Positions 1,913 through 29,842 of a DNA stretch of 46,285 nt are shown here, one piece after another. A model generated the notes under the pieces. It had not been told where the DNA came from and did not search any database. It saw nothing but the letters and a program-made list of their open reading frames with translations. Origin of the DNA: a virus (lineage: Duplodnaviria > Caudoviricetes); IMG/VR virus record IMGVR_UViG_3300038393_001395, positions 1-46,285 of that record. One strand, written 5' to 3'. The first letter of the stretch is position 1. Each line of letters starts with the position of its first letter. The translations under genes were made by a program, and so were the position numbers.

Positions 1913-2565
1913 AGACGTTCTCGACGGCCACGCAGGAAGCCCTCGAAAGCGGGGAGGCCATCGTCACGGCGGCCATCAAGGTGGTCACCCCGGGCGAGAC
2001 CTGGCGGGTGTGGGGCGGCTACGGCGACCTCGCCATCGCGGGCGAGGCCGACCCGTTCACGGGCATCGGGGACCGCGCCCTGGTCACGGCCAGCGGCGGC
2101 GAACTCGGCTCGGCCGCCAACGCGCTCACCATCGACCTGAACGGGGTGGAGCCGGAGAACCTGCGCCTGCTCGGCCTGTCGGGCCTGCGCCGGGCGCCGG
2201 TCGTGGTGTGGCGGCTGATCTTCGACGTGACTGGGGCGAACATGCTCGCCGCGCACGTCTTCACCCGGGGCCGGCTCGACGTGGCCCCGGTCACCGGTAC
2301 GCCCGGTGGCGAGAAGTCGATCCGCTTCGACATCGAAGGCGCCGCCCGCTCCCTCGGCCGGCGCATGGGCCGGATGCGGACCGACGCCGACCAACGGCTG
2401 ATCCGCTCTGACGACCCGGGTTTCGAGCTGGTCTCCATCGCCGGCGAAGTGAAGCTCTATTGGGGCGGCAAGACCCCGGAGCGGGCCGGGTCGGCCCTGC
2501 CCGGCAGCAGCTTCCTCGGCCACCTGGGCCAGATCATGGGCCTGCCGCAGGGCGGCGTCCTTTGA
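1909..2565 (+). CDS. Minor tail/baseplate hub protein (DUF2163/gpL-like, putative)
   Basis: GTGA-coupled; tail-tip position; motif ending DDPGFELVS..GEVKLYWG. Confidence 0.65.
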   Translation: MKTFSTATQEALESGEAIVTAAIKVVTPGETWRVWGGYGDLAIAGEADPFTGIGDRALVTASGGELGSAANALTIDLNGVEPENLRLLGLSGLRRAPVVVWRLIFDVTGANMLAAHVFTRGRLDVAPVTGTPGGEKSIRFDIEGAARSLGRRMGRMRTDADQRLIRSDDPGFELVSIAGEVKLYWGGKTPERAGSALPGSSFLGHLGQIMGLPQGGVL

Positions 2566-2984
2566 TGCGCGACCACGACGCCCTGATCCGGTTCCTTCAG
2601 GACCGGGCCTCCTTCGCGTTCGGGTTCGACTGGCGCGAGCCCCGGACCCAGGACTGCTTCCGGCTTGTCATGGAGGGCGCCCAAGCCCAGACCGGCGAGG
2701 ACCGCTGGGCCGACGTGCGCGGCCGGTGGACCTCGGAGCGCGGCGCGGCGCGCGCCATCCTGAAGTTCGGGCCGACCTTGGCTGACGTGCTGGACAAGCG
2801 GTTCGCCCGGGTCGCGCCCGCCCTCGCCATGCGCGGCGACATCGGCGCGATCACGGGGCCGAAGGGCCTGACGCTCGGGATCATCGAGGGTCACAGCGTC
2901 GCGTACTGCGCCGAACGGGGCGGGCTGGAGCGCCGGCCCCGCACCGAACTGGAACTGGCCTGGTCTGTCGAGGGGGGCGTCTGA
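2565..2984 (+). CDS. Tail-assembly NlpC/P60-like protein (gpK-like)
   Basis: ATG overlaps upstream TGA; F.F.W...DC motif and RGDIG; position before the J-like gene. Confidence 0.6.
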   Translation: MRDHDALIRFLQDRASFAFGFDWREPRTQDCFRLVMEGAQAQTGEDRWADVRGRWTSERGAARAILKFGPTLADVLDKRFARVAPALAMRGDIGAITGPKGLTLGIIEGHSVAYCAERGGLERRPRTELELAWSVEGGV

Positions 2985-5576
2985 ATGCCGTTCGTCGCCC
3001 CGCTCGTCACCGCCGTGATGGGGACCAGCGTCCTCGCCAGCGTCGTCACCTTCACCATCAATGCGACCATCTCGGTCGGCCTGTCGCAGCTCCTCTCGCC
3101 CAAGCAGAAGGGACAGGAGCGCCAAGCCCAGGTCACGTCGCTTCAGATCGGCGAGAACGCCCGGGGCGTGATCTTCGGCGAGGTCGCGACCGGTGGGACC
3201 CTGGTCAAGGCCACCAACTACGGCGGAGGCTACGGCACCGATTACGAGGTGCTGGTCATCGCGCTCGCGGACCATCGCTGCGAGGCCCTGTTGGGCTTCT
3301 ACGTGGACGACGAATACGTGGCGTTCACCGGCAACGGTCCGGTCTCCGGGTTCACCAACGCGGGCGGGCAATCCTGCCTTGACGTGTATTTCTTCGACGG
3401 CAGCACCGCCACCCAGACCGTTCCCTCGACCTGGAACCTGGGCTGGCCGAACCCCGTGCTGGACGGGGTGTGCTTCGTCGCGGTCCGCTACAAGTACAAT
3501 CCCAAGGTCTGGTCCGGCGGGCGCCCGAAACTGCTGTGGCGGGTGAAGGGAAAGCGCTGCTACGACCCGCGCCTGGACACGACTGTGGGCGGCTCCGGCG
3601 CCCATCGCTGGAACGATCCTTCGACCTGGGCCTGGACCGACAACGCCGCCGTCTGCCGCTACAACTTCCAGCGCGGGATTTACGCCCTGGATCAGGTCGG
3701 CGACCCGTCGATGCTGCTGGTCGGCCGGGGCCTGTCCGAGGAAGAGGCCGACCCCGCCCGCGTGTTCGCCTCGGCCAACGTCTGCGACGAACTGGTGGCG
3801 ACCGGCGCCAGCACCACGGAAAAGCGTTACCGGGTCGGCTGCTACATCGCGGCGGACGAGGCCTGGGAACAGGTGGAGGAGAACTTCGCCGCCGCCATGG
3901 CCGGGGTCATCGTCCAGCCTGACGGCGGGATCGACGTGGAGCCGGGCCAGTCCAAGGCCGTGGCCGCCACCATCACCGACGATGACCTGCTGAACGGCCG
4001 GGAGGTGGCGTTCTCGCCGTTCATCTCGGACGCCCGCCGGGTCAACACGGTCATTCCGCGATACGTCGAGCCGGCGCAGATGTGGAAGGATCACGCCGCG
4101 CCGCTGCGCCGGAACGCCACCGACATCACCGACGACGGCGGGATCAGGGACGAAACCCTGTCTCTGCCCTTTGTGACATCGGTCTATCAGGCCCAGCGGT
4201 GCGGGGAGATCCACCGCCGGCTGATGCGCCTGGAGCGCACCGCCACGGTGACGCTCGGTCCGAAGTGGTCGTTCCTGGAAGACGGCGACTGGATCGACTG
4301 GACCTCGGGCGAGTTCCACGACGGGGCCACGATCACGTATCGGGTGGAGAGCTACACGCTCGCCCCCAACCATGAAATCACCCTGGAGCTGCGCGAGATC
4401 GCGTCCTCGGTCTATTCGTGGACCGCGGCAGACGTGATCCAGCCTCAGGCTGAGGAAATGCCGACCGGCGGCGGTGGCGGGACCATCGGGCCGAGCCCGG
4501 CCGGCGACCTGGCGCTCTCGAGCGTCACCGCTTCGGGTGTCACCATCACGGACGGGTTCATCAAGCGGGCCGGCGGCAAGATCAGCTGGGCCACGCCGCT
4601 GGACGAGGCCATCGACGCGGTCGCGGTGGAGTGGCGGCGGCAGGGGGCGACCAAGTCCGAGGGCACCTTCACCGTCCACGACGAGGACGCGGGCGAACAG
4701 GAGTTCGCCACGAAGCTGGACAACAAGGCCTATGAGGTGCGGGCCCGGCCGATCCCGAAGGACCCCGGCCGCACCTGGGCATGGTCGTCGTGGCTGTCGT
4801 TCACCTCGGGCCTGCACAAGACCCCCACCACCTCGCTCGTTTCGGCCTCCACGGGCGCGACGCTCGGGGACTCGGACGTGATCACGTCACAGGGCACGGC
4901 GGCGGCCATCGTCAACCAAGGCGGGCTCGCCACCCGTAACCACACCGAAGCGTCGTCGGCTCCCGGAAGCCCTGGAACCGGGGACCTGTGGACCGACACC
5001 TCGGCCACCCCGGTCAAGCTGAAGCGGTGGAACGGGTCGGCGTGGGTGGTGCAAGCCACCTACAACACCGGCGCCCTGGCCGACCTGAACACGGCCGACA
5101 CGGCGCAACTGGCCGCCTTCGCCGCGACCCGCTGGTCTACGCAGGTTCAGACCTCGGGCCTCGGGGGGGCGGGGACCATCTTCATCGCCTACCAGGGCTC
5201 CCCGGCCAGCAACTACACGCAGCTGGACGAGTTCACCTTCACGGTGGACACGGCCTCGGTCCCGGTGCTGATCGAGTGGAACGGTCAGATCAACTGGAAC
5301 CGCAACGCCGCGACCAACACCATCCTCATGGTGACGATTGACGGCAACCCGGCCTTTGTGGCGGGGGCCGACACCAACACGGAATTGCGTAAGCAGTACC
5401 AGGGCAACCAGAACGCCTTGAACCTGGACGTGATCCTCACGGTGCTCAAGACCACCCTCTCAGCCGGGTCTCACACGGTCAAAATCTGGGGCAAGACCGT
5501 TGAGAACCCCGGCGTGACCCTGGTCCCGCACCTGAGCATGGGCGCCATCACCAAGGTCATTCAGGGGAAACGCTGA
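2985..5576 (+). CDS. Tail tip / central fibre host-specificity protein (J-like)
   Basis: 863 aa; VKGKRCYDPR...WAWTDNAA motif; FN3-like segment; GDLWTDT..LKRWNG.W motif. Confidence 0.85.
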   Translation: MPFVAPLVTAVMGTSVLASVVTFTINATISVGLSQLLSPKQKGQERQAQVTSLQIGENARGVIFGEVATGGTLVKATNYGGGYGTDYEVLVIALADHRCEALLGFYVDDEYVAFTGNGPVSGFTNAGGQSCLDVYFFDGSTATQTVPSTWNLGWPNPVLDGVCFVAVRYKYNPKVWSGGRPKLLWRVKGKRCYDPRLDTTVGGSGAHRWNDPSTWAWTDNAAVCRYNFQRGIYALDQVGDPSMLLVGRGLSEEEADPARVFASANVCDELVATGASTTEKRYRVGCYIAADEAWEQVEENFAAAMAGVIVQPDGGIDVEPGQSKAVAATITDDDLLNGREVAFSPFISDARRVNTVIPRYVEPAQMWKDHAAPLRRNATDITDDGGIRDETLSLPFVTSVYQAQRCGEIHRRLMRLERTATVTLGPKWSFLEDGDWIDWTSGEFHDGATITYRVESYTLAPNHEITLELREIASSVYSWTAADVIQPQAEEMPTGGGGGTIGPSPAGDLALSSVTASGVTITDGFIKRAGGKISWATPLDEAIDAVAVEWRRQGATKSEGTFTVHDEDAGEQEFATKLDNKAYEVRARPIPKDPGRTWAWSSWLSFTSGLHKTPTTSLVSASTGATLGDSDVITSQGTAAAIVNQGGLATRNHTEASSAPGSPGTGDLWTDTSATPVKLKRWNGSAWVVQATYNTGALADLNTADTAQLAAFAATRWSTQVQTSGLGGAGTIFIAYQGSPASNYTQLDEFTFTVDTASVPVLIEWNGQINWNRNAATNTILMVTIDGNPAFVAGADTNTELRKQYQGNQNALNLDVILTVLKTTLSAGSHTVKIWGKTVENPGVTLVPHLSMGAITKVIQGKR

Positions 5577-7078: not shown

Positions 7079-7806
7079 TGCTGAGCGCGCCGTCGATCAG
7101 CTACCTGGGAACCGGGGCCGCGGCCCCCGCCGGTCCGGCGTTCTCCAACGTCAAGCTTCTGATCGGGGCGGACGGGGCCAACAACTCGACCAGCTTCACC
7201 GACGACAGCGCCGCGCACCGCACGCTCACGGTCGGGGGGAACGCCAAGGTCACCACCAGCAACCCCAAGTTCGGGACGGGGTGTCTGCTGCTGGACGGGT
7301 CCGGCGACTACCTGTCGCTGGCGCCCTCTTCGGGGGTGTGGAGCCCCGGCGCGGGTCAGGCCACGGGCGAGCTGTGGGCGCGCTTCGCTACGACCGGCTC
7401 GCTCAGCGCGGCGCTGATGGGCCAATGGGGGGCGTCCACGTCAGAGTGTTCGTGGTTCTTCTACCTGTCGGCCGGCACCCTGCGGCTGCGCTTCTACGAC
7501 AACACCCTGACCGTGCGCGACTGCGACGCCGCTTGGTCCGTGCCCGACACCAACTGGCATCACCTCGCCTGGGACCGGGACGGCTCGGGCGTGGTCCGCA
7601 CCTACGTGGACGGGGTGATGAAGGGCAAGACCACCCTCGCCCAGACCATGAACAACGCCACCGGCCAGTTCGGAGTCGGGACCATCCCGAGCGTGGGCCT
7701 CGACCTCAACGGCGCCCTCGACGAAATCCGCGTCACCATCGGCGAAGCCGTCTACGCCACGGACGCCGGGTTCACGCCTCCGACCGCCGCGTTCGCGCGG
7801 TCCTGA
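7078..7806 (+). CDS. LamG/concanavalin-like jelly-roll protein (putative receptor-binding)
   Basis: WHHLAWDRDG..VRTYVDG and G.LDEIRVT LamG signatures; ATG overlaps upstream TGA. Confidence 0.8.
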   Translation: MLSAPSISYLGTGAAAPAGPAFSNVKLLIGADGANNSTSFTDDSAAHRTLTVGGNAKVTTSNPKFGTGCLLLDGSGDYLSLAPSSGVWSPGAGQATGELWARFATTGSLSAALMGQWGASTSECSWFFYLSAGTLRLRFYDNTLTVRDCDAAWSVPDTNWHHLAWDRDGSGVVRTYVDGVMKGKTTLAQTMNNATGQFGVGTIPSVGLDLNGALDEIRVTIGEAVYATDAGFTPPTAAFARS

Positions 7807-7830
7807 CCGACCCGCCCATCCTTCTCTCTC

Positions 7831-7854
7831 GGCCGCCTTCGGGCGGCTTTTTTC
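7831..7854 (+). terminator. Hairpin GCCGCC-TTCG-GGCGGC followed by T6
   Basis: Intrinsic-terminator shape; near-copy at 43439-43459. Confidence 0.65.
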
Positions 7855-7872
7855 ATGCCTGGAGCCTAGCCG

Positions 7873-8271
7873 ATGAGCTACCGCGACCTTTCCACCTCGA
7901 CCAGCGTTCAGGCGAGCCAAGCCTCCGAAGAGGTGGTGATCGATCCGGCGACCAAGCTCCCCATCGACCCCCGCGCGCCCTCGCCGGATCAGGACCCGAT
8001 CTTCGACCATGCGAACGGCACGAAGACGAGCGTCACCACCTCGGCCACGGTCATCACGCCGCCGACCGGCTGCAAGTATCTCCGTATCTCGGCCGACGCG
8101 GACGTGTTCGTGAACACGGCGGGCAGCGCCGCCGTGGACGACGGCACCTCCATCCGCATCATCGCCAACCAGCCGGAAGTGATCCCGGTCACGGCGGGGA
8201 CGGCGGTCAAAGCGTTGTCCGCGTCCGGCACCGCCGTGGTCCGCTGCACTCCCCTGAAGGTGCGTTCGTAA
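7873..8271 (+). CDS. Hypothetical virion-type beta-sandwich protein
   Basis: RBS GGAG; 132 aa; coupled to the next gene (TAATG). Confidence 0.65.
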   Translation: MSYRDLSTSTSVQASQASEEVVIDPATKLPIDPRAPSPDQDPIFDHANGTKTSVTTSATVITPPTGCKYLRISADADVFVNTAGSAAVDDGTSIRIIANQPEVIPVTAGTAVKALSASGTAVVRCTPLKVRS

Positions 8272-9479
8272 TGCAGCTTGGACCCAGAGCCCTCGCGGGA
8301 CGGGGGCAACCGGCGGCGCTGGCATCTCTTTCGTCGGGGCGACGGGGTATCGCTTGGGCCGCGGCCCTGCCGGCCCTCCGCTCGTTCGTCACGGCCAACT
8401 ACGACCAGCCGAACCCGCACAATCGGGCGGTGATGGCGAGCCCGCCGACCGTGACGGCGAACGGCACGACGCTGCCGGCCGGCATGGTGGTCAGCGCCTC
8501 GATCTCGCCCGCCACGCAGGGCACGGCTGCGCTTCGCATCCTTGGCGGCACGCTGTTCACCGCCGGAGCCTTGTCGCGTGTTTACTCGGCGACCATCGGC
8601 GCGACGGGCGGCAACGGCGGCACCAACGACGGCAAGCAATGCGCGGGCTGGCGGGCCGACATCATCGCCAACGCCCAAAACGTGTCGTTCCGCGTCGGCC
8701 CGACCTCGGCGAAGTACCGCTTCCTTGTGGACGGCCAGTATGTGGACCTGACCGGGACGCAGACGGTCGCGACGACCGGAACCACGACCGAGTACATCAA
8801 GCTCGCCTTCGCCAGCAAAGCCGTCCGCCGCATCACCATCGAAGGCCAACTGTCCGGCGCGCTGTCTCAGGTGTGGTGCGAGACCGGCGGCACGCTCACC
8901 CGCCCCAGCGACACACCAAAGCGCGTCGCGTTCGCGGGCGACAGCATCACCTACGGCACCGCCGCGGCCGCGCTCGGCGACAACTACGCATGGGTGGCGG
9001 CCGACACGCTTGGGTTTGGGCACGTCTTGTCCTCGGGAGCTCCCTCGACCGGCTACGCCGCCACCAACGGCGGCGCCAACTACAAGCTGTCGCAACGCCT
9101 CGCCGACATCAACGGCACCGGCCCGTGGGACGCCATCGTGGTGGCGATGGGCGTCAACGACATTTCGCAGGGCTCGACCGGCGCAGCGGTAACGAGCGAA
9201 GTGGCGACCTGCCTCGCCTCGTTCCGGGCCAGCAATCCGGCCGCGCAAATCTTCGTCGTGGGGCCGTGGGACCGGAGCGCCCCCGCCGCGCCTGAGGCGG
9301 GATATTCAACCATCAAGGCCGCGATCCAGGCAGGCGTTCCTGCGGGGCAGGGGATCACCTTCCTCGACCCGGAGGGCGTCGCCTACGTCAATTCGGATGG
9401 GACCCACCCGACGACGGCGGGACACGCCACCCTCGGCGCTTGGCTGGCCGGCGCGATCAAGACCGCGCTAGGGGCGTAA
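8271..9479 (+). CDS. SGNH/GDSL hydrolase (esterase) with N-terminal beta domain, 402 aa
   Basis: Blocks FAGDSITYG, G, MGVND and DGTHP match the SGNH catalytic motifs. Confidence 0.85.
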   Translation: MQLGPRALAGRGQPAALASLSSGRRGIAWAAALPALRSFVTANYDQPNPHNRAVMASPPTVTANGTTLPAGMVVSASISPATQGTAALRILGGTLFTAGALSRVYSATIGATGGNGGTNDGKQCAGWRADIIANAQNVSFRVGPTSAKYRFLVDGQYVDLTGTQTVATTGTTTEYIKLAFASKAVRRITIEGQLSGALSQVWCETGGTLTRPSDTPKRVAFAGDSITYGTAAAALGDNYAWVAADTLGFGHVLSSGAPSTGYAATNGGANYKLSQRLADINGTGPWDAIVVAMGVNDISQGSTGAAVTSEVATCLASFRASNPAAQIFVVGPWDRSAPAAPEAGYSTIKAAIQAGVPAGQGITFLDPEGVAYVNSDGTHPTTAGHATLGAWLAGAIKTALGA

Positions 9480-16474: not shown

Positions 16475-16695
16475 CGCTCCCCGCCCTCTTCCTCGGGCTT
16501 CGCGGGTTCGGTTCGGGCGAGCACCAACGTGACTCTGTCAACGCCGGGGGCGCACTCCGTCTTTAGGGTGAAGTCCCAACCCAGCTTTCGCGCCGTCCGA
16601 AGCATCGGAACGAGGTCGTCCATAAGGGCGTCGAGCGGCTCTTTGTGGATGTTGTCAGCGGCCACTTCGTCTCGCCCCTCAGTTCGCGGGCTCAT
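16471..16695 (-). CDS. Hypothetical protein
   Basis: Coupled on both sides within the early operon. Confidence 0.55.
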   Translation of the reverse strand: MSPRTEGRDEVAADNIHKEPLDALMDDLVPMLRTARKLGWDFTLKTECAPGVDRVTLVLARTEPAKPEEEGGER

Positions 16696-17243
16696 CGCTC
16701 CCCTCCCCTGGACGGGGGAAGGGCGAGGAGGGCGCGAAGGGTGGTCGAAGCGTTCGCGACGAACTTGAGCAGCCCCACTGTCGTGTCGACGACTTCGCCG
16801 GAGACGTTCTCACCATTCGTCAGGCGAGCGATGTGCGGGCCTTCAGCCGGTCGGAGTTGGGCGGCGACAGCATCCATCATGTCCAGCACCCTCGCCACCG
16901 CCTCTCGTTCGGGAAGGGCGGGGGGATCTTGGGTGACGAGCCGTCCCGTGCTGGGTTCGGCCTTCGTCGGCGCGGGGCCGGCGTCGCTCGGCTCTGCGGA
17001 GGGCGGCGGGTCGAGCGGTCGCCAATGCGTGGCCCTGAACCGGGAGTTCCGGCGCCACGTCAGGATTTCGTCGGTGCGGCTGGATGGATTGTGCCGCCAG
17101 CACCGCTGCACGTCCCACTCGCGGTCGATGGCGAGAAAGGCCGCATCCCTCGGAGCGGTCTCAATCGGCTGCCAGCCTTGGCACGGGACGGCTCGTGCAC
17201 CCATTTCATCCCCTTCGGTGAAGGCCGAGATTGAGAGGGTCAT
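16692..17243 (-). CDS. DUF551-like phage protein
   Basis: WQPIETAPRD...THWRPL.PPP motif. Confidence 0.7.
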   Translation of the reverse strand: MTLSISAFTEGDEMGARAVPCQGWQPIETAPRDAAFLAIDREWDVQRCWRHNPSSRTDEILTWRRNSRFRATHWRPLDPPPSAEPSDAGPAPTKAEPSTGRLVTQDPPALPEREAVARVLDMMDAVAAQLRPAEGPHIARLTNGENVSGEVVDTTVGLLKFVANASTTLRALLALPPSRGGER

Positions 17244-18181
17244 GCGGCGAGCCTTTCGAGGGTCGCGAGCGCGCTCAGCGAGGCGCGGCCGAGGCGGTAC
17301 GGGATTTCCGGGACGACGGCGTTGCCGAGGCCATGCAGGCGGTCCACCCGAGCGGGAACCCCATTAGCCACTCGACCCACGTCGGGTTCAGTTGCCCACC
17401 CCCATGTCGCTCCACGGCGTCCGGCAGGGTGTTGTCCGGGCTCTTGCCCCGGGCGATCAGGCTCTCCGGGCTGGCTCCGCCCTTCCAGTCCCTGGACGAG
17501 GGCGTCGGCCACATGCGAACCGCCGTTTGCAGGTTCACGCCCCCCTGAAGGTTCGGACCCGAGCCCGCTCCCGTCCCGCCATTCGCCCGCGGCGTTGGCC
17601 AGAGCGGCTTCAGAAAGTTCCTGGGCGAGCGCCCGCCGGAACGCATCGCCGAAGCCTTCGTGTTGCTCGCCTCGGGGGTAGGCAACAATCCAGATCCGGT
17701 CGCGTCGGTGAGGGGCGCCAACGGCGGACGCTGGTATGCAGTCCCATTCCGCATCGTACCCGAGCGCGGCCAGGTCTCCGAGAACAACTCCAAGTCCCCG
17801 ACCAAGGAGCGCTGAGACGTTTTCCAGATAGACGAGCCGAACGGGCCGTCCGATGTCACGCAGCTCGCGAAGAAGTCGGGCGATCTGGAACCATAGTCCG
17901 GAACGCGCGCCGTCCAGCCCGGCGCCCTTGCCGGCATAGCTGAGGTCCTGACAGGGGAAGCCTCCGCAGAGGGCGTCCACGGAAATTCCGTCTGCGGCCA
18001 GTCGTTCAGCGGTGAGGGTGTTGACGTCGTCATAGCAGGGAACGTCCGGCCAGTAGTGGTTGAGGAGGTGGCGCGGCTTGGGCAGCACTTCGCAGAAGGC
18101 GACGGTGCGGAACCCGCCGGTGCGTTCCAGGCCGAGGCTGAAGCCGCCGATGCCCGAAAACAGGTCGAGGACGTTGATCAC
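17240..18181 (-). CDS. DNA (cytosine-5) methyltransferase, alpha chain (motifs I-VIII and X, no motif IX)
   Basis: LDLFSGIGG, GGFPCQD, LENV, HRRDRIW and GNAVVP. Confidence 0.92.
   Translation of the reverse strand: MINVLDLFSGIGGFSLGLERTGGFRTVAFCEVLPKPRHLLNHYWPDVPCYDDVNTLTAERLAADGISVDALCGGFPCQDLSYAGKGAGLDGARSGLWFQIARLLRELRDIGRPVRLVYLENVSALLGRGLGVVLGDLAALGYDAEWDCIPASAVGAPHRRDRIWIVAYPRGEQHEGFGDAFRRALAQELSEAALANAAGEWRDGSGLGSEPSGGREPANGGSHVADALVQGLEGRSQPGEPDRPGQEPGQHPAGRRGATWGWATEPDVGRVANGVPARVDRLHGLGNAVVPEIPYRLGRASLSALATLERLAA
17275..18033 (-). CDS. Nested alternate-frame C5-MTase beta chain (three PTP repeats plus motif IX)
   Basis: LLPTP/LWPTP/MWPTP repeats and LNPTWVEWLMGFPLGWT; lies wholly inside the alpha gene; start uncertain. 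Confidence 0.75.
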   Translation of the reverse strand: MTTSTPSPLNDWPQTEFPWTPSAEASPVRTSAMPARAPGWTARVPDYGSRSPDFFASCVTSDGPFGSSIWKTSQRSLVGDLELFSETWPRSGTMRNGTAYQRPPLAPLTDATGSGLLPTPEASNTKASAMRSGGRSPRNFLKPLWPTPRANGGTGAGSGPNLQGGVNLQTAVRMWPTPSSRDWKGGASPESLIARGKSPDNTLPDAVERHGGGQLNPTWVEWLMGFPLGWTACMASATPSSRKSRTASAAPR

Positions 18182-18528
18182 CCCTCACCCCCTTCCCGCG
18201 TGTGTTGGGCGGAGAGGTACGCGCTGAACCGATGAAGCGCGGTCGCGAAGGCCACGCGCTCGCGCTCGGCCTGAAGCCAACGGAGGGCGAGCCGCGCGGG
18301 GCGGGGCATGGTCCCGCCTTTGCACCAGCGACTGACCGCGCTGCTGTCGACCCCCAGTTCCTCGGCGATGCGGCTTCGCCAGCCCACGCCGTAGACCTCG
18401 CGCGCCTCGCTCAGCAGCGCGAACGCCTCGGGATCGCACGCGGCCAGATCGTCCGCCTGAACCCGCTTCAGCAGCCCTTCCAGGCTATCGCCTTTAGTCA
18501 TGGGAGGGGTCATGCGCAAAACTCCCAC
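18178..18528 (-). CDS. XRE-type HTH protein
   Basis: IAEELGVDSSAVSRWCKG. Confidence 0.7.
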   Translation of the reverse strand: MGVLRMTPPMTKGDSLEGLLKRVQADDLAACDPEAFALLSEAREVYGVGWRSRIAEELGVDSSAVSRWCKGGTMPRPARLALRWLQAERERVAFATALHRFSAYLSAQHTREGGEG

Positions 18529-18992
18529 AGCAGTTTGTCCTCGGTCGGATGCTTGTCGGCGCGCGGGCGCGATGGCGTGTCCCAGCTGCGACCCTTCACT
18601 TCGGCCACCTTGGTCCAGCCCGCGACACGCAGGCTATCGCCGCTTTCACGGGCCAGCGTGTAGGTCCCGATGCGGCGAAACCCCATCGCCATGGCCGCCC
18701 GTGCACACCTGGCCAGGAGGAAGGAACAGACGCTGGACGCGTGGGCCTTGCCGTCGCGGCCTATCGCCGGCGGAAGGTCTGACCTCGCGCACAGGCGGGT
18801 GATCTCAGCGGTGGAGCCGTCGTCCCGGTGTCGGGAGACGGGCCGCCCGACGATGGCCACGCCAACCAGCTCGCCGGCGCGGTATGCGCCCAGGCTGAAC
18901 AGGTGGCCAACCGGCGGAGTGTGGTGGCGGTGATGCTGGGCCACGAACGCGCGCGCCGTGTCGAAGTCTACGCGACCGTGCGTGAGCCTCAT
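18510..18992 (-). CDS. XF1762/Mom-like GNAT-fold protein
   Basis: FV..HHRHH.PP.G, GVAIVGRPV.R..DDG.T.EITRLC, TYTL..ESG.SLR.AGW. Confidence 0.75.
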   Translation of the reverse strand: MRLTHGRVDFDTARAFVAQHHRHHTPPVGHLFSLGAYRAGELVGVAIVGRPVSRHRDDGSTAEITRLCARSDLPPAIGRDGKAHASSVCSFLLARCARAAMAMGFRRIGTYTLARESGDSLRVAGWTKVAEVKGRSWDTPSRPRADKHPTEDKLLWEFCA

Positions 18993-19507
18993 TCCGCCCC
19001 TCCCCCCGCCTGAGACGCGATGAGGGAGCGGACGTAGTTGACGGCTTCAGCGATGAACCGGGCGTCGCGCTGCGCCAGTTCGATGAACGGCCGGCGCTCC
19101 TCATCGGTGCCGCTTTTGCAGGCGTACGACCCAGCCGTTCCGACGCAGCCGGCGTCCGCGAAGACGTGGCGCATCTCGTCGCCCTGAACACGCCACGGCC
19201 CTTCCGTCGCCTTCTCCGCCAGTTCGACAAGCTCGGCAGGCAAGGCGGGGGCGGCCTGGTTCGCGACAACCGCATCCCGCATACGGATCGCTTCCGCCTC
19301 GTCAGGGGCGTACACCGAAGCGGTCCAGAGATGGCCCTCTTCAACCGCAGGCCCGGCGACGGGGGCGGGAGGGGCGGACGACATGGCGGCGAACGCGGAC
19401 TCAACACGACGGGACACGTCGTCAGCCACGGCTTTGGGCGCTTCCAGGTACAGCGCACGCAGGCCGCGCCGCGCCTCCTCGACAACGCGCTTCACGGCCT
19501 CACCCAT
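18989..19507 (-). CDS. Hypothetical protein (Ead/Ea22-like ATEGPW motif)
   Basis: LAEKATEGPW...DARFIAEA pattern. Confidence 0.6.
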   Translation of the reverse strand: MGEAVKRVVEEARRGLRALYLEAPKAVADDVSRRVESAFAAMSSAPPAPVAGPAVEEGHLWTASVYAPDEAEAIRMRDAVVANQAAPALPAELVELAEKATEGPWRVQGDEMRHVFADAGCVGTAGSYACKSGTDEERRPFIELAQRDARFIAEAVNYVRSLIASQAGGGAE

Positions 19508-28617: not shown

Positions 28618-28865
28618 CCGTCTCTGTCCAGCGTGCCAGCCCCAGGGCCAAGTCCCCCGTTCACGCCACCATCACCGACCAGGCCTGGAAGGCCATGGCC
28701 GACACGGTCCTGGGCCAGCCCACGGTCGAGCTCCGAAAGTTCTGCGCCCAGGAAATGACCCGGGCCGTGGTCGCCTGCCTCTCCGTCACCCATGGGCATG
28801 AAGAAGCCCTGGCCCTGCTCGGGGCCACGGTGGGGCGGATGCAACGGCAGGTGGGGAGGAAGTGA
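28614..28865 (+). CDS. Hypothetical protein
   Basis: Coupled ORF. Confidence 0.55.
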   Translation: MTVSVQRASPRAKSPVHATITDQAWKAMADTVLGQPTVELRKFCAQEMTRAVVACLSVTHGHEEALALLGATVGRMQRQVGRK

Positions 28866-29842
28866 TGCGGGTCGAGACCATCGGCGACTGCACGCTCTAC
28901 CTCGGGGACTGTCGGGAACTGCTTCCGACATTCGAGGGCATCGACGCCGTTTGCACCGATCCGCCGTATGGCGTTCGAGACGATGCGTGGGACGACATGA
29001 GCGAACGCGAGTTCGCCCGGTTCAGCATGGCATGGCTCGCCGAGGCCGCCCGCATCGCCCCGGAAGCGGTGATCTTCGGCTACCTCGACAGCGCCGTACA
29101 TCGGCTCTGCCAGATGATCTATCCGAGGGTGCGGCCGATGATCTGGGCCAAGCCTCCCGGCTCGCAGCTTTCCGGCGCATCCGAGCGCAAGCGGTGGTTC
29201 GCGTTCGAGGCGGTGTTCCACTGCCACCAGGGCGAGACTTGGAGCGTGGTTGAGGCGCGCGATGTCGATGTCGCCCGGCTCGTCAAGGCGGCGCGTGATC
29301 GGAAGGGCCTGACCCGAGGCGCGGTAGAGGTCTTGCTTCGCGGCAAGAAGACCGGCCTCTGCTACCGATGGGAGGAGGGCTCCAGCCTGCCCGGTCCCGA
29401 GGACGCCGCAGGCCTTCGCCGAGTTCTGGGCCTCGGAGACGAGTTCGACGCCGCGCTGCGGGCCGCGCTAGACGCCAAGGCCGAGACCGTCTCAGCAGCG
29501 CGCGAGCAGGCGTCCAAGAACGCTGCGGCTCGCTCGGACGTGCTGAGCTACCGCACCGTAACGGCGGGCCGTCACCCGTGCGAAAAGCCCATTGGTCTCA
29601 TGGATGACTTGATCGAAACGACCGGCGACCGCTGGCGTTCGGTGCTGGACCCGTTCCTCGGTTCCGGCTCGACCGGCGTGGCGTGCACTCGCCTCGGGCG
29701 CCGCTTCGTCGGCATCGAACAGGACCCGACCTACTTCGACATCGCCTGCAAGCGGATCGAGGAAGCCTACGCCCAGCCCCGCCTGTTCGACGAGCCCGCC
29801 CCCAAGCCGGTGCAACCCAAGCTGTTCGGGGACGCCGCATGA
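28865..29842 (+). CDS. Beta-class N6-A/N4-C DNA methyltransferase with internal XRE-HTH
   Basis: GDC, TDPPY, HPCEKP and VLDPFLGSGSTG; inserted VKAARDRKGLT...YRWEEG.SLP. Confidence 0.88.
   Translation: MRVETIGDCTLYLGDCRELLPTFEGIDAVCTDPPYGVRDDAWDDMSEREFARFSMAWLAEAARIAPEAVIFGYLDSAVHRLCQMIYPRVRPMIWAKPPGSQLSGASERKRWFAFEAVFHCHQGETWSVVEARDVDVARLVKAARDRKGLTRGAVEVLLRGKKTGLCYRWEEGSSLPGPEDAAGLRRVLGLGDEFDAALRAALDAKAETVSAAREQASKNAAARSDVLSYRTVTAGRHPCEKPIGLMDDLIETTGDRWRSVLDPFLGSGSTGVACTRLGRRFVGIEQDPTYFDIACKRIEEAYAQPRLFDEPAPKPVQPKLFGDAA

Follow-up and report, generated by a model that had tools for sequence, protein, structure and literature searches.

The window analysed here is a stretch of 46,285 nucleotides, positions 1 to 46,285 of the IMG/VR virus record IMGVR_UViG_3300038393_001395 (Duplodnaviria; Caudoviricetes), and it holds on its minus strand two open reading frames (ORFs), one nested in the other, that together carry the motifs of a C5-cytosine methyltransferase (Table 1). 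The motifs of these enzymes are numbered I to X. A preliminary description of the DNA had reported a 313-residue ORF, here called alpha, with motifs I-VIII plus X, as well as a 252-codon ORF, here called beta, with motif IX and three units initiated by P-T-P; both are present where it placed them, on a strand that it had left unstated. The two overlapping frames are both under selection and very probably give two separate chains. The reading preferred here, to which a probability of about 0.6 is given, is that the two chains form one C5 methyltransferase in which beta picks the target sites through its three exchangeable units, termed cassettes below.

Residues 3-175 of alpha match the Pfam family PF00145 (E = 4e-35), where the match ends, and alpha also matches phrog_363 of the PHROGs collection. 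Motifs I, IV (GFPCQ), VI (ENV), VIII (RRDRIW) and X (LGNAVV) can be read in its translation, and the catalytic Cys77 is encoded at 17951-17953. Beta has no Pfam match, is matched in PHROGs by phrog_1008, 'DNA methyltransferase' (E = 2e-31), and in a PDB search returned nothing but a weak match of its motif IX to a segment of a plant DRM methyltransferase (E = 1.5). All PF00145 motifs tested are present in the pair, with I, IV (PC), VI (ENV), VIII (RxR) and X in alpha and IX in beta.

Table 1. Features of the nested methyltransferase locus, in window coordinates.
Feature	Position	Strand	Description
Alpha chain	17240..18181	-	313 aa, GTG start; C5-cytosine methyltransferase motifs I-VIII, linker, motif X
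Beta ORF	17275..18033	-	+1 frame of alpha; 252 aa if begun at ATG 18033, 220 aa if at ATG 17937; phrog_1008
Dual-coding core	17674..17871	-	Alpha residues 104-169 (motifs VI-VIII) overlaid with the conserved beta arm
Beta cassette 1	17602..17685	-	28 aa, type T0
Beta cassette 2	17512..17601	-	30 aa, type T4
Beta cassette 3	17392..17511	-	40 aa, unclustered
Motif IX within beta, LNPTWVEWLMGFPLGWT	17341..17391	-	Wobble entropy 0.30 bits; predicted packing against motifs X and I of alpha
Alpha linker, residues 170-260	17402..17674	-	Open; variable in sequence and length

From the window alone, the probability that the +1 frame stays open from motif IV to motif IX, given the alpha protein, is 0.014. 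Relatives were then collected as 152 loci with a full alpha, of which 105 remained below 85% identity and 103 were scored. In 100 of these 103 non-redundant relatives the +1 frame stayed open between motifs IV and IX, against a mean of 1.2 and a maximum of 4 in 200 runs of synonymous-codon resampling of alpha. Segmentation was achieved for 77 of 81 loci, and in these +1 stops occurred once in 6228 codons of motifs IV-VIII and 8 times in 9160 codons of VIII-X, versus 105 in 5260 codons upstream, and the +2 frame of the same 77 loci had a stop rate of 3-6%. The motif IX pattern lay in the +1 frame in 70 of 80 viral loci found with alpha, and 9 of the remaining 10 had a divergent motif IX, also in the +1 frame. 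Inversely, alpha was open across the motif IX of beta in all 78 assessable loci of the 80 viral loci found with beta, a set that shares contigs with the alpha-found set and is not independent of it, and resampling the codons of beta left alpha open in only about 2 of 103 (about 2%). That homologues keep both frames open, a point raised in the preliminary description, is thus borne out. Among prokaryote genomes, 66 of 80 loci were scored as nested by regular expression; of the 14 others, 10 were read by eye, with 8 found nested and 2 broken. Prokaryote loci that seemed to carry beta in the '+2 frame' or in the 'same frame' were regular-expression errors, with the exception of one frameshifted locus (L231).

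Selection on beta is visible in the wobble positions of alpha. At fourfold sites of alpha the third-position entropy stands at 1.70 bits over residues 6-62 and at 1.60 over residues 64-103. It drops to 0.96 bits over residues 104-169 (p = 8e-8) and to 0.30 bits over residues 262-280, under motif IX, and recovers to 1.62 within motif X. Residues 104-169 lie under an arm of beta, WKTSQ...FSETWPRSGTMRNG.Y, which is conserved and overlies the catalytic motifs VI-VIII of alpha. Single codons are fixed here, Val119 as GTG (70/70), Gly141 as GGG (99/99) and Ala139 as GCG (47/47), and their invariance fixes Trp, Gly and Arg in beta. The preliminary description was right about motif IX and the P-T-P units of beta and missed this arm. 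It had also put the DNA coding in two frames at about 750 bp; the ORFs do overlap over 759 bp, and selection on beta is detectable over roughly 530 bp only, approximately alpha codons 104-280 (about 17871-17341). The N-terminal stretch of beta is open and without sequence constraint. No conserved, clearly selected beta start was found, and the best Shine-Dalgarno scores were spread. Two Asp codons that precede motif IV show an enrichment of ATG (GAT 102 vs GAC 58, p = 4e-5); at both of them the window has ACG.

The linker of alpha, which lies under the cassettes, is unconserved among relatives, yet its frame stays open and tolerates insertions; it is likely a passive tether that joins motif VIII to motif X and holds no recognition domain. 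In three relatives beta is followed in the +1 frame by a further ORF of 115-141 codons across which alpha stays open, the chance of this being 0.009 in L021, 0.012 in L052 and 0.002 in L070. These HNH-like ORFs stand directly after the motif IX of beta (L021 2447-2869, L052 2243-2587, L070 2405-2812). The L021 insert has a weak HNH match (E = 0.003), and in L070 part of motif IX is repeated beyond the insert. Possibly they represent a mobile endonuclease aimed at the doubly conserved codons of motif IX.

The association of the two chains was modelled, as the preliminary description had suggested, with alpha, beta from 17937 and S-adenosylhomocysteine. The complex scored 0.92 and the best of 3 controls 0.00; among reference pairs, 116 of 157 solved ones and 2 of 215 mismatched ones attained the mark applied to this score, and these counts hold only roughly for the present case. 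Model runs shared at least 64% of contacts, with a partner pLDDT (predicted local distance difference test) of at least 51. Confident contacts placed the arm on alpha residues 123-160 and motif IX on alpha residues 268-292 as well as on motif I. Of the cassettes, number 3 is the only one whose head docks confidently on alpha in the complex model. Beta folded alone gave a poor model (pLDDT 61, predicted template modelling score, pTM, 0.30). Natural single-chain relatives exist in the order motifs I-VIII, arm, cassettes, IX, X, and the arm, cassettes and motif IX of beta correspond exactly to what comes after motif VIII in them. One such chain, P0119, was modelled with pLDDT 86.9 and pTM 0.85, with local pLDDT of 94-98 in the equivalent of the arm, below 50 in the first cassette and 65-91 in the last. 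The P0119 model matches M.HhaI (1fjx) with Z 26.4 and a root-mean-square deviation of 3.4 over 260 aligned residues, and the M.HhaI-type fold is thus seen on this relative. Alpha and beta are predicted by these models to assemble into one C5-cytosine methyltransferase.

In the window three P-T-P-initiated units stand between the arm and motif IX. For comparison, 295 units of median length 36 were cut by pattern from 125 betas, comprising those of the 105 dereplicated loci and those of L161-L247, which were not dereplicated. The cassette head has the consensus [WL]-P-T-P-x-A-x-D. Clustering at 55% core identity gave 41 types of at least 2 members and 131 singletons. The array of the window reads T0-T4-unclustered, its third cassette being 53% identical to two T7 units. 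The relative closest to the window (L001) reads T0-T4-T3-unclustered, and other arrays read T0-T5-T4-T24 (L006) and T0-T9 (L082). T0 was first in 15 of 15 arrays carrying it, and the 6 members of T4 occupied array positions 1-4. The number of units varies among homologues, which the preliminary description had left to be checked, from 0 to 5 cassettes in the 103 relatives and up to 11 regular-expression matches in long betas. Within types, differences at the three codon positions of beta were 0.29/0.23/0.54, the third varying most. Since the type clustering had used the beta frame, 104 pairs were also chosen by DNA identity alone and gave 0.18/0.10/0.43 at the same positions. By this pattern of differences, the cassettes evolve as protein of the beta frame.

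In a quick tree of alpha motifs I-VIII (79 rows, 157 columns, made with no shuffled-label test), types T1, T3, T6, T7, T8 and T9 needed one change per member, T2 needed 8 changes for 9 members and T4 needed 4 for 5, so that the types are for the most part scattered over the tree. Furthermore, in 29 single-chain proteins 38 of 105 cassettes matched a nested-beta cassette at 55% or more. Exchange of cassettes between phages is well supported by these sequence comparisons. The position of the cassettes between motifs VIII and IX, where target-recognition domains (TRDs) stand, their protein-like evolution and the recurring types were counted in favour of a role in recognition, and it is probable that they read DNA as target-recognition modules. 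A true P-T-L head is present in 5 units (in L057, L060 and L099). A profile of the single chains aligned to M.HhaI no further than motif VIII, apart from a trace of motif X.

Several betas are unusual. P0012, P0014 and P0011 carry 9-11 or more cassettes, P0012 reaching 903 aa. L042 and L235 have a P-T-P cassette upstream of the arm, where it is inserted between motifs III and IV of alpha and both frames are open. The long betas P0016, P0020 and P0036 contain a LAGLIDADG domain (PF00961), upstream of the arm in P0016. In P0048, P0051 and P0076, cassette arrays and motif IX are fused to a primase-polymerase (PF09250) or a Dam-like methylase (PF02086), and these fusions may be real or may be gene-calling run-ons.

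Under the preferred reading, alpha would supply the SAM-binding and catalytic motifs I-VIII and, beyond the linker, motif X, and beta would be made from an internal start. Beta would clamp alpha through its arm, on motif VII, and through motif IX, on motifs X and I. The tandem TRDs of multispecific enzymes from Bacillus phages act alternately, and the cassettes would likewise take turns, one at a time, in the recognition position of the small domain, so that the enzyme would methylate up to three sequences. That more than one cassette is active is marginally favoured. Methylation would shield the DNA of the temperate phage from host restriction, and cassette exchange would change the protected sites; such an anti-restriction role has slightly better than even odds. 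A wider proposal falls somewhat short of even odds and is put forward tentatively. Here target recognition would, in a very large phage family, have passed to beta as a separately made, overprinted subunit. Its cassettes of 25-45 residues, one DNA motif each, would be drawn from a common stock numbering dozens to hundreds, and their addition, loss or swapping would reprogramme anti-restriction methylation. Identical cassettes would serve in nested, partly overlapping and single-chain layouts, and the whole would amount to a natural readable code for programmable 5-methylcytosine specificity.

Several results weigh against the preferred reading. The complex score may come from likeness to solved monomeric methylases, the two chains being halves of a known fold, and some top contacts pair residues encoded by shared nucleotides (alpha 143-144 with beta 62), in which the common coding might pass for covariation. 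The internal cassettes are of low confidence, with pLDDT below 50 in the single-chain model and a place outside the confident interface of the complex. Of the 10 prokaryote loci inspected by eye, two are broken. Type T0 tracks the alpha tree, with 3 changes over 14 members, and is largely inherited with one alpha clade. The TL consensus of TRDs in C5 methyltransferases is P-T-[ILV] (PMC2413257; this and the other papers named below are cited from their available text), and the units depart from it, with P-T-P in 94% of 243 units and T-L in 2%. A cassette profile scored only 0.9 bits against MtbP of phage SPbeta, a value reached by 10 of 500 shuffles, and its best match fell on a PTLT segment. 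Finally, there is no precedent for specificity in beta from M.EcoHK31I, the two-chain C5 methyltransferase of E. coli (YGGCCR; PMC2836561) to which the preliminary description had likened the pair, since its beta lacks cassettes and its TRD is assigned to alpha (PMC2836561, PMC3404938).

The strongest rival, itself rather unlikely, keeps two chains and allows them one specificity. Only the cassette adjacent to motif IX would read DNA, the others forming a silent recombination reserve, or all cassettes would cooperate on a single site or do no more than raise affinity. It would agree with the last cassette being the only one ordered in the single-chain model and with the docking of the cassette 3 head alone in the complex, and 18 of the 103 relatives have 0 or 1 cassette. 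However, a static model shows one docked unit even if cassettes alternate, and a silent reserve does not need the conservation as protein that first and internal cassettes show across distant phages. T3 and T4, moreover, are found at internal and terminal positions alike.

Improbable is a second rival in which the two chains exist and the cassettes have proteins of the host or the phage as their binding partners, or regulate the enzyme, with specificity broad or located elsewhere. The departure from the TL consensus and the weak similarity to known TRDs speak for it, as do the shortness of the units, their richness in Gly, Pro, Arg and Ser and the poor structure of beta alone. Against this, the variable region of alpha is unconserved, which leaves no other recognition element in sight, and the units hold the TRD position in single-chain relatives, a few having the true P-T-L head.

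The preliminary description had named as its alternative a double frameshift, by which the reading frame would move by +1 beyond motif VIII and by -1 ahead of motif X to yield a single polypeptide. The joined order would be canonical, single chains in frame do exist in nature, and the lack of a conserved, clearly selected start for beta would fit as well. The arm decides against it. It overlaps the catalytic motifs VI-VIII of alpha, and a chain that is frameshifted after motif VIII cannot hold it, so that two products are needed; with both frames selected on the same codons, a single chain made by frameshifting alone is very unlikely. Nor would a shifted chain need alpha to be open under the cassettes, and EcoHK31I, with equal register, functions from two separately expressed genes (PMC2836561). 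That the second frame is no gene and only a by-product of alpha conservation or of high GC (68.5% in the window, with numerous long spurious ORFs) is refuted by the +1 stop counts and the codon resampling (100 of 103 open against 1.2 expected), and further opposed by the constrained wobble sites, by motif IX lying in the +1 frame only and by beta homologues that are annotated genes and extend past alpha in phages Corndog and Peaches.

The contig, the only one in its assembly, is that of a temperate tailed phage; its genes include those for integrase, excisionase, repressor, DnaB helicase, terminase, portal, head and tail. The methylase gene sits in a leftward block next to the integrase and close to a Mom-like gene. 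The latter (18510-18992, minus strand, two genes upstream of the methylase) encodes a Mom-like DNA modification protein (phrog_1384, E = 4e-30). An N6/N4-type DNA methyltransferase (28862-29842, plus strand; PF01555) adjoins the DnaB helicase gene and carries an insert resembling a helix-turn-helix (HTH) at residues 138-194, bringing the candidate DNA-modification genes of the phage, with the C5 enzyme, to 3. Of the neighbours of the methylase that were scanned, an HTH protein, the Mom-like protein and the integrase match other families and a downstream ORF of 183 aa has no match; no search was aimed at endonucleases. Past the tail genes, a 732-aa ORF (7281-9479, plus strand) has a C-terminal GDSL/SGNH hydrolase domain. 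CTAG, CGCG, GTAC, GANTC and the 6-bp palindromes GTCGAC, CACGTG and TGGCCA are strongly avoided across the window, and this depletion was not tied to the C5 enzyme. GANTC is the site of CcrM, and its avoidance would fit an alphaproteobacterial host. Assembled contigs match the window exactly over 16500-17364 and 17756-19000 in one run, which may be where the window comes from, and over 17501-17626 in another.

Of 50,697 phage records, 470 are matched by beta, and Mycobacterium phages account for 306 of the 470. The nested layout was also found in Paenibacillus phage Shelly, in an E. coli Kagunavirus and in a Citrobacter plasmid, and the window is an ordinary member of this nested methylase family. 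In Shelly the same nested pair is gp55/gp56, with beta annotated as 'g55 internal gene'. Among the matches listed, two annotated features lie under the beta match in 40 of 60 phage records. The preliminary description had held that gene callers miss the hidden frame, and this is true in part only. In the stretch shown of L249, an EcoHK31I-type locus of E. coli, RefSeq gives alpha alone (2498-3427, WP_001328257.1) and leaves the proven beta unannotated; the phage pairs above and phrog_1008 show beta to be recorded elsewhere. The nested two-chain design itself is already known, and both genes are often annotated. On a beta cassette library, or on a sequence argument for two phage chains, no literature was found by a search whose reach excluded most subscription journals. 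Another layout is seen in gp68 of Mycobacterium phage Seagreen (L164, 810-2345), where cassettes, IX and X are in the alpha frame and the +1 frame ends after the arm and two cassettes that it has retained, which suggests that the arm is still supplied as a separate peptide.

The two-frame design characterised for M.EcoHK31I is thus a common phage layout, and where only alpha is annotated as the methylase, the probable determinant of specificity is missing. Should the cassettes be recognition modules, a small exchangeable subunit would bear a large natural collection of mini-TRDs. The methylation targets of phages would then be predictable from sequence, escape from restriction would be explained and a handle on programmable methyltransferases would be gained.

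Among known systems, the C5 methyltransferases of Bacillus phages with their tandem swappable TRDs (PMC2413257) resemble the present pair in being phage-borne and in carrying, from motif VIII to motif IX, short modules in tandem that each have a P-T head. SPbeta MtbP differs as a single chain with TL/TV motifs that is proven multispecific, and its similarity to the cassettes is not significant. M.AquI, likened here by its description only (PMC3404938), has motifs I-VIII in alpha and a distal variable region, IX and X in beta. The mycobacteriophage pairs Corndog gp7/gp6 and Peaches gp77/gp76 share the +1 arm, P-T-P cassettes and motif IX with the window, and Peaches shares cassette type T18 with nested betas. 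In these two phages alpha ends past motif VIII and motif X is in beta, whereas alpha of the window reads on under the cassettes and keeps X. For the Corndog overlap, the available text of PMC4351075 notes coding potential, reports that no splicing and no peptides were found and leaves two products or a frameshift open. The dual selection on the arm answers that question in favour of two chains.

The likeness to M.EcoHK31I goes further. In both systems beta lies wholly within alpha in the +1 frame, with motifs I-VIII and X in alpha and IX in beta. EcoHK31I beta is required for activity, and N-terminal deletions of it impair association with alpha (PMC2836561). The 5' primer from the supplement of that paper matches 81 of 5426 complete E. 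coli genomes. In L249 a 309-codon alpha adjoins a restriction endonuclease, and a 176-residue +1 ORF starts from alpha codon 104. The family alpha profile matches L249 alpha with E = 6.5e-70, and the beta profile aligns in register with the arm and motif IX of L249 beta (two-sequence search, E = 2e-7), whose middle part is not homologous. The arm is thus homologous (W-x-x-S-G-M-x-x-x-G) and lies in equal register over alpha motif VII. With the shared frame, the homologous arm and motif IX, the dual-frame selection and the complex model, the two-chain reading modelled on EcoHK31I in the preliminary description has held up. EcoHK31I has an adjacent cognate restriction endonuclease. The two systems differ in that the present gene sits in a phage, and also in the recognition element. 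L249 alpha has a TL-like segment visible by eye and L249 beta lacks P-T-P cassettes, whereas the alpha linker of the phage is unconserved and its beta has three exchangeable cassettes. Because the conserved modules lie in beta, the window is to be classed as a variant of the EcoHK31I type and not as a plain member. As judged from sequence, the nested architecture is common to EcoHK31I and the window by homology, and the probable specificity element has moved to the other frame.

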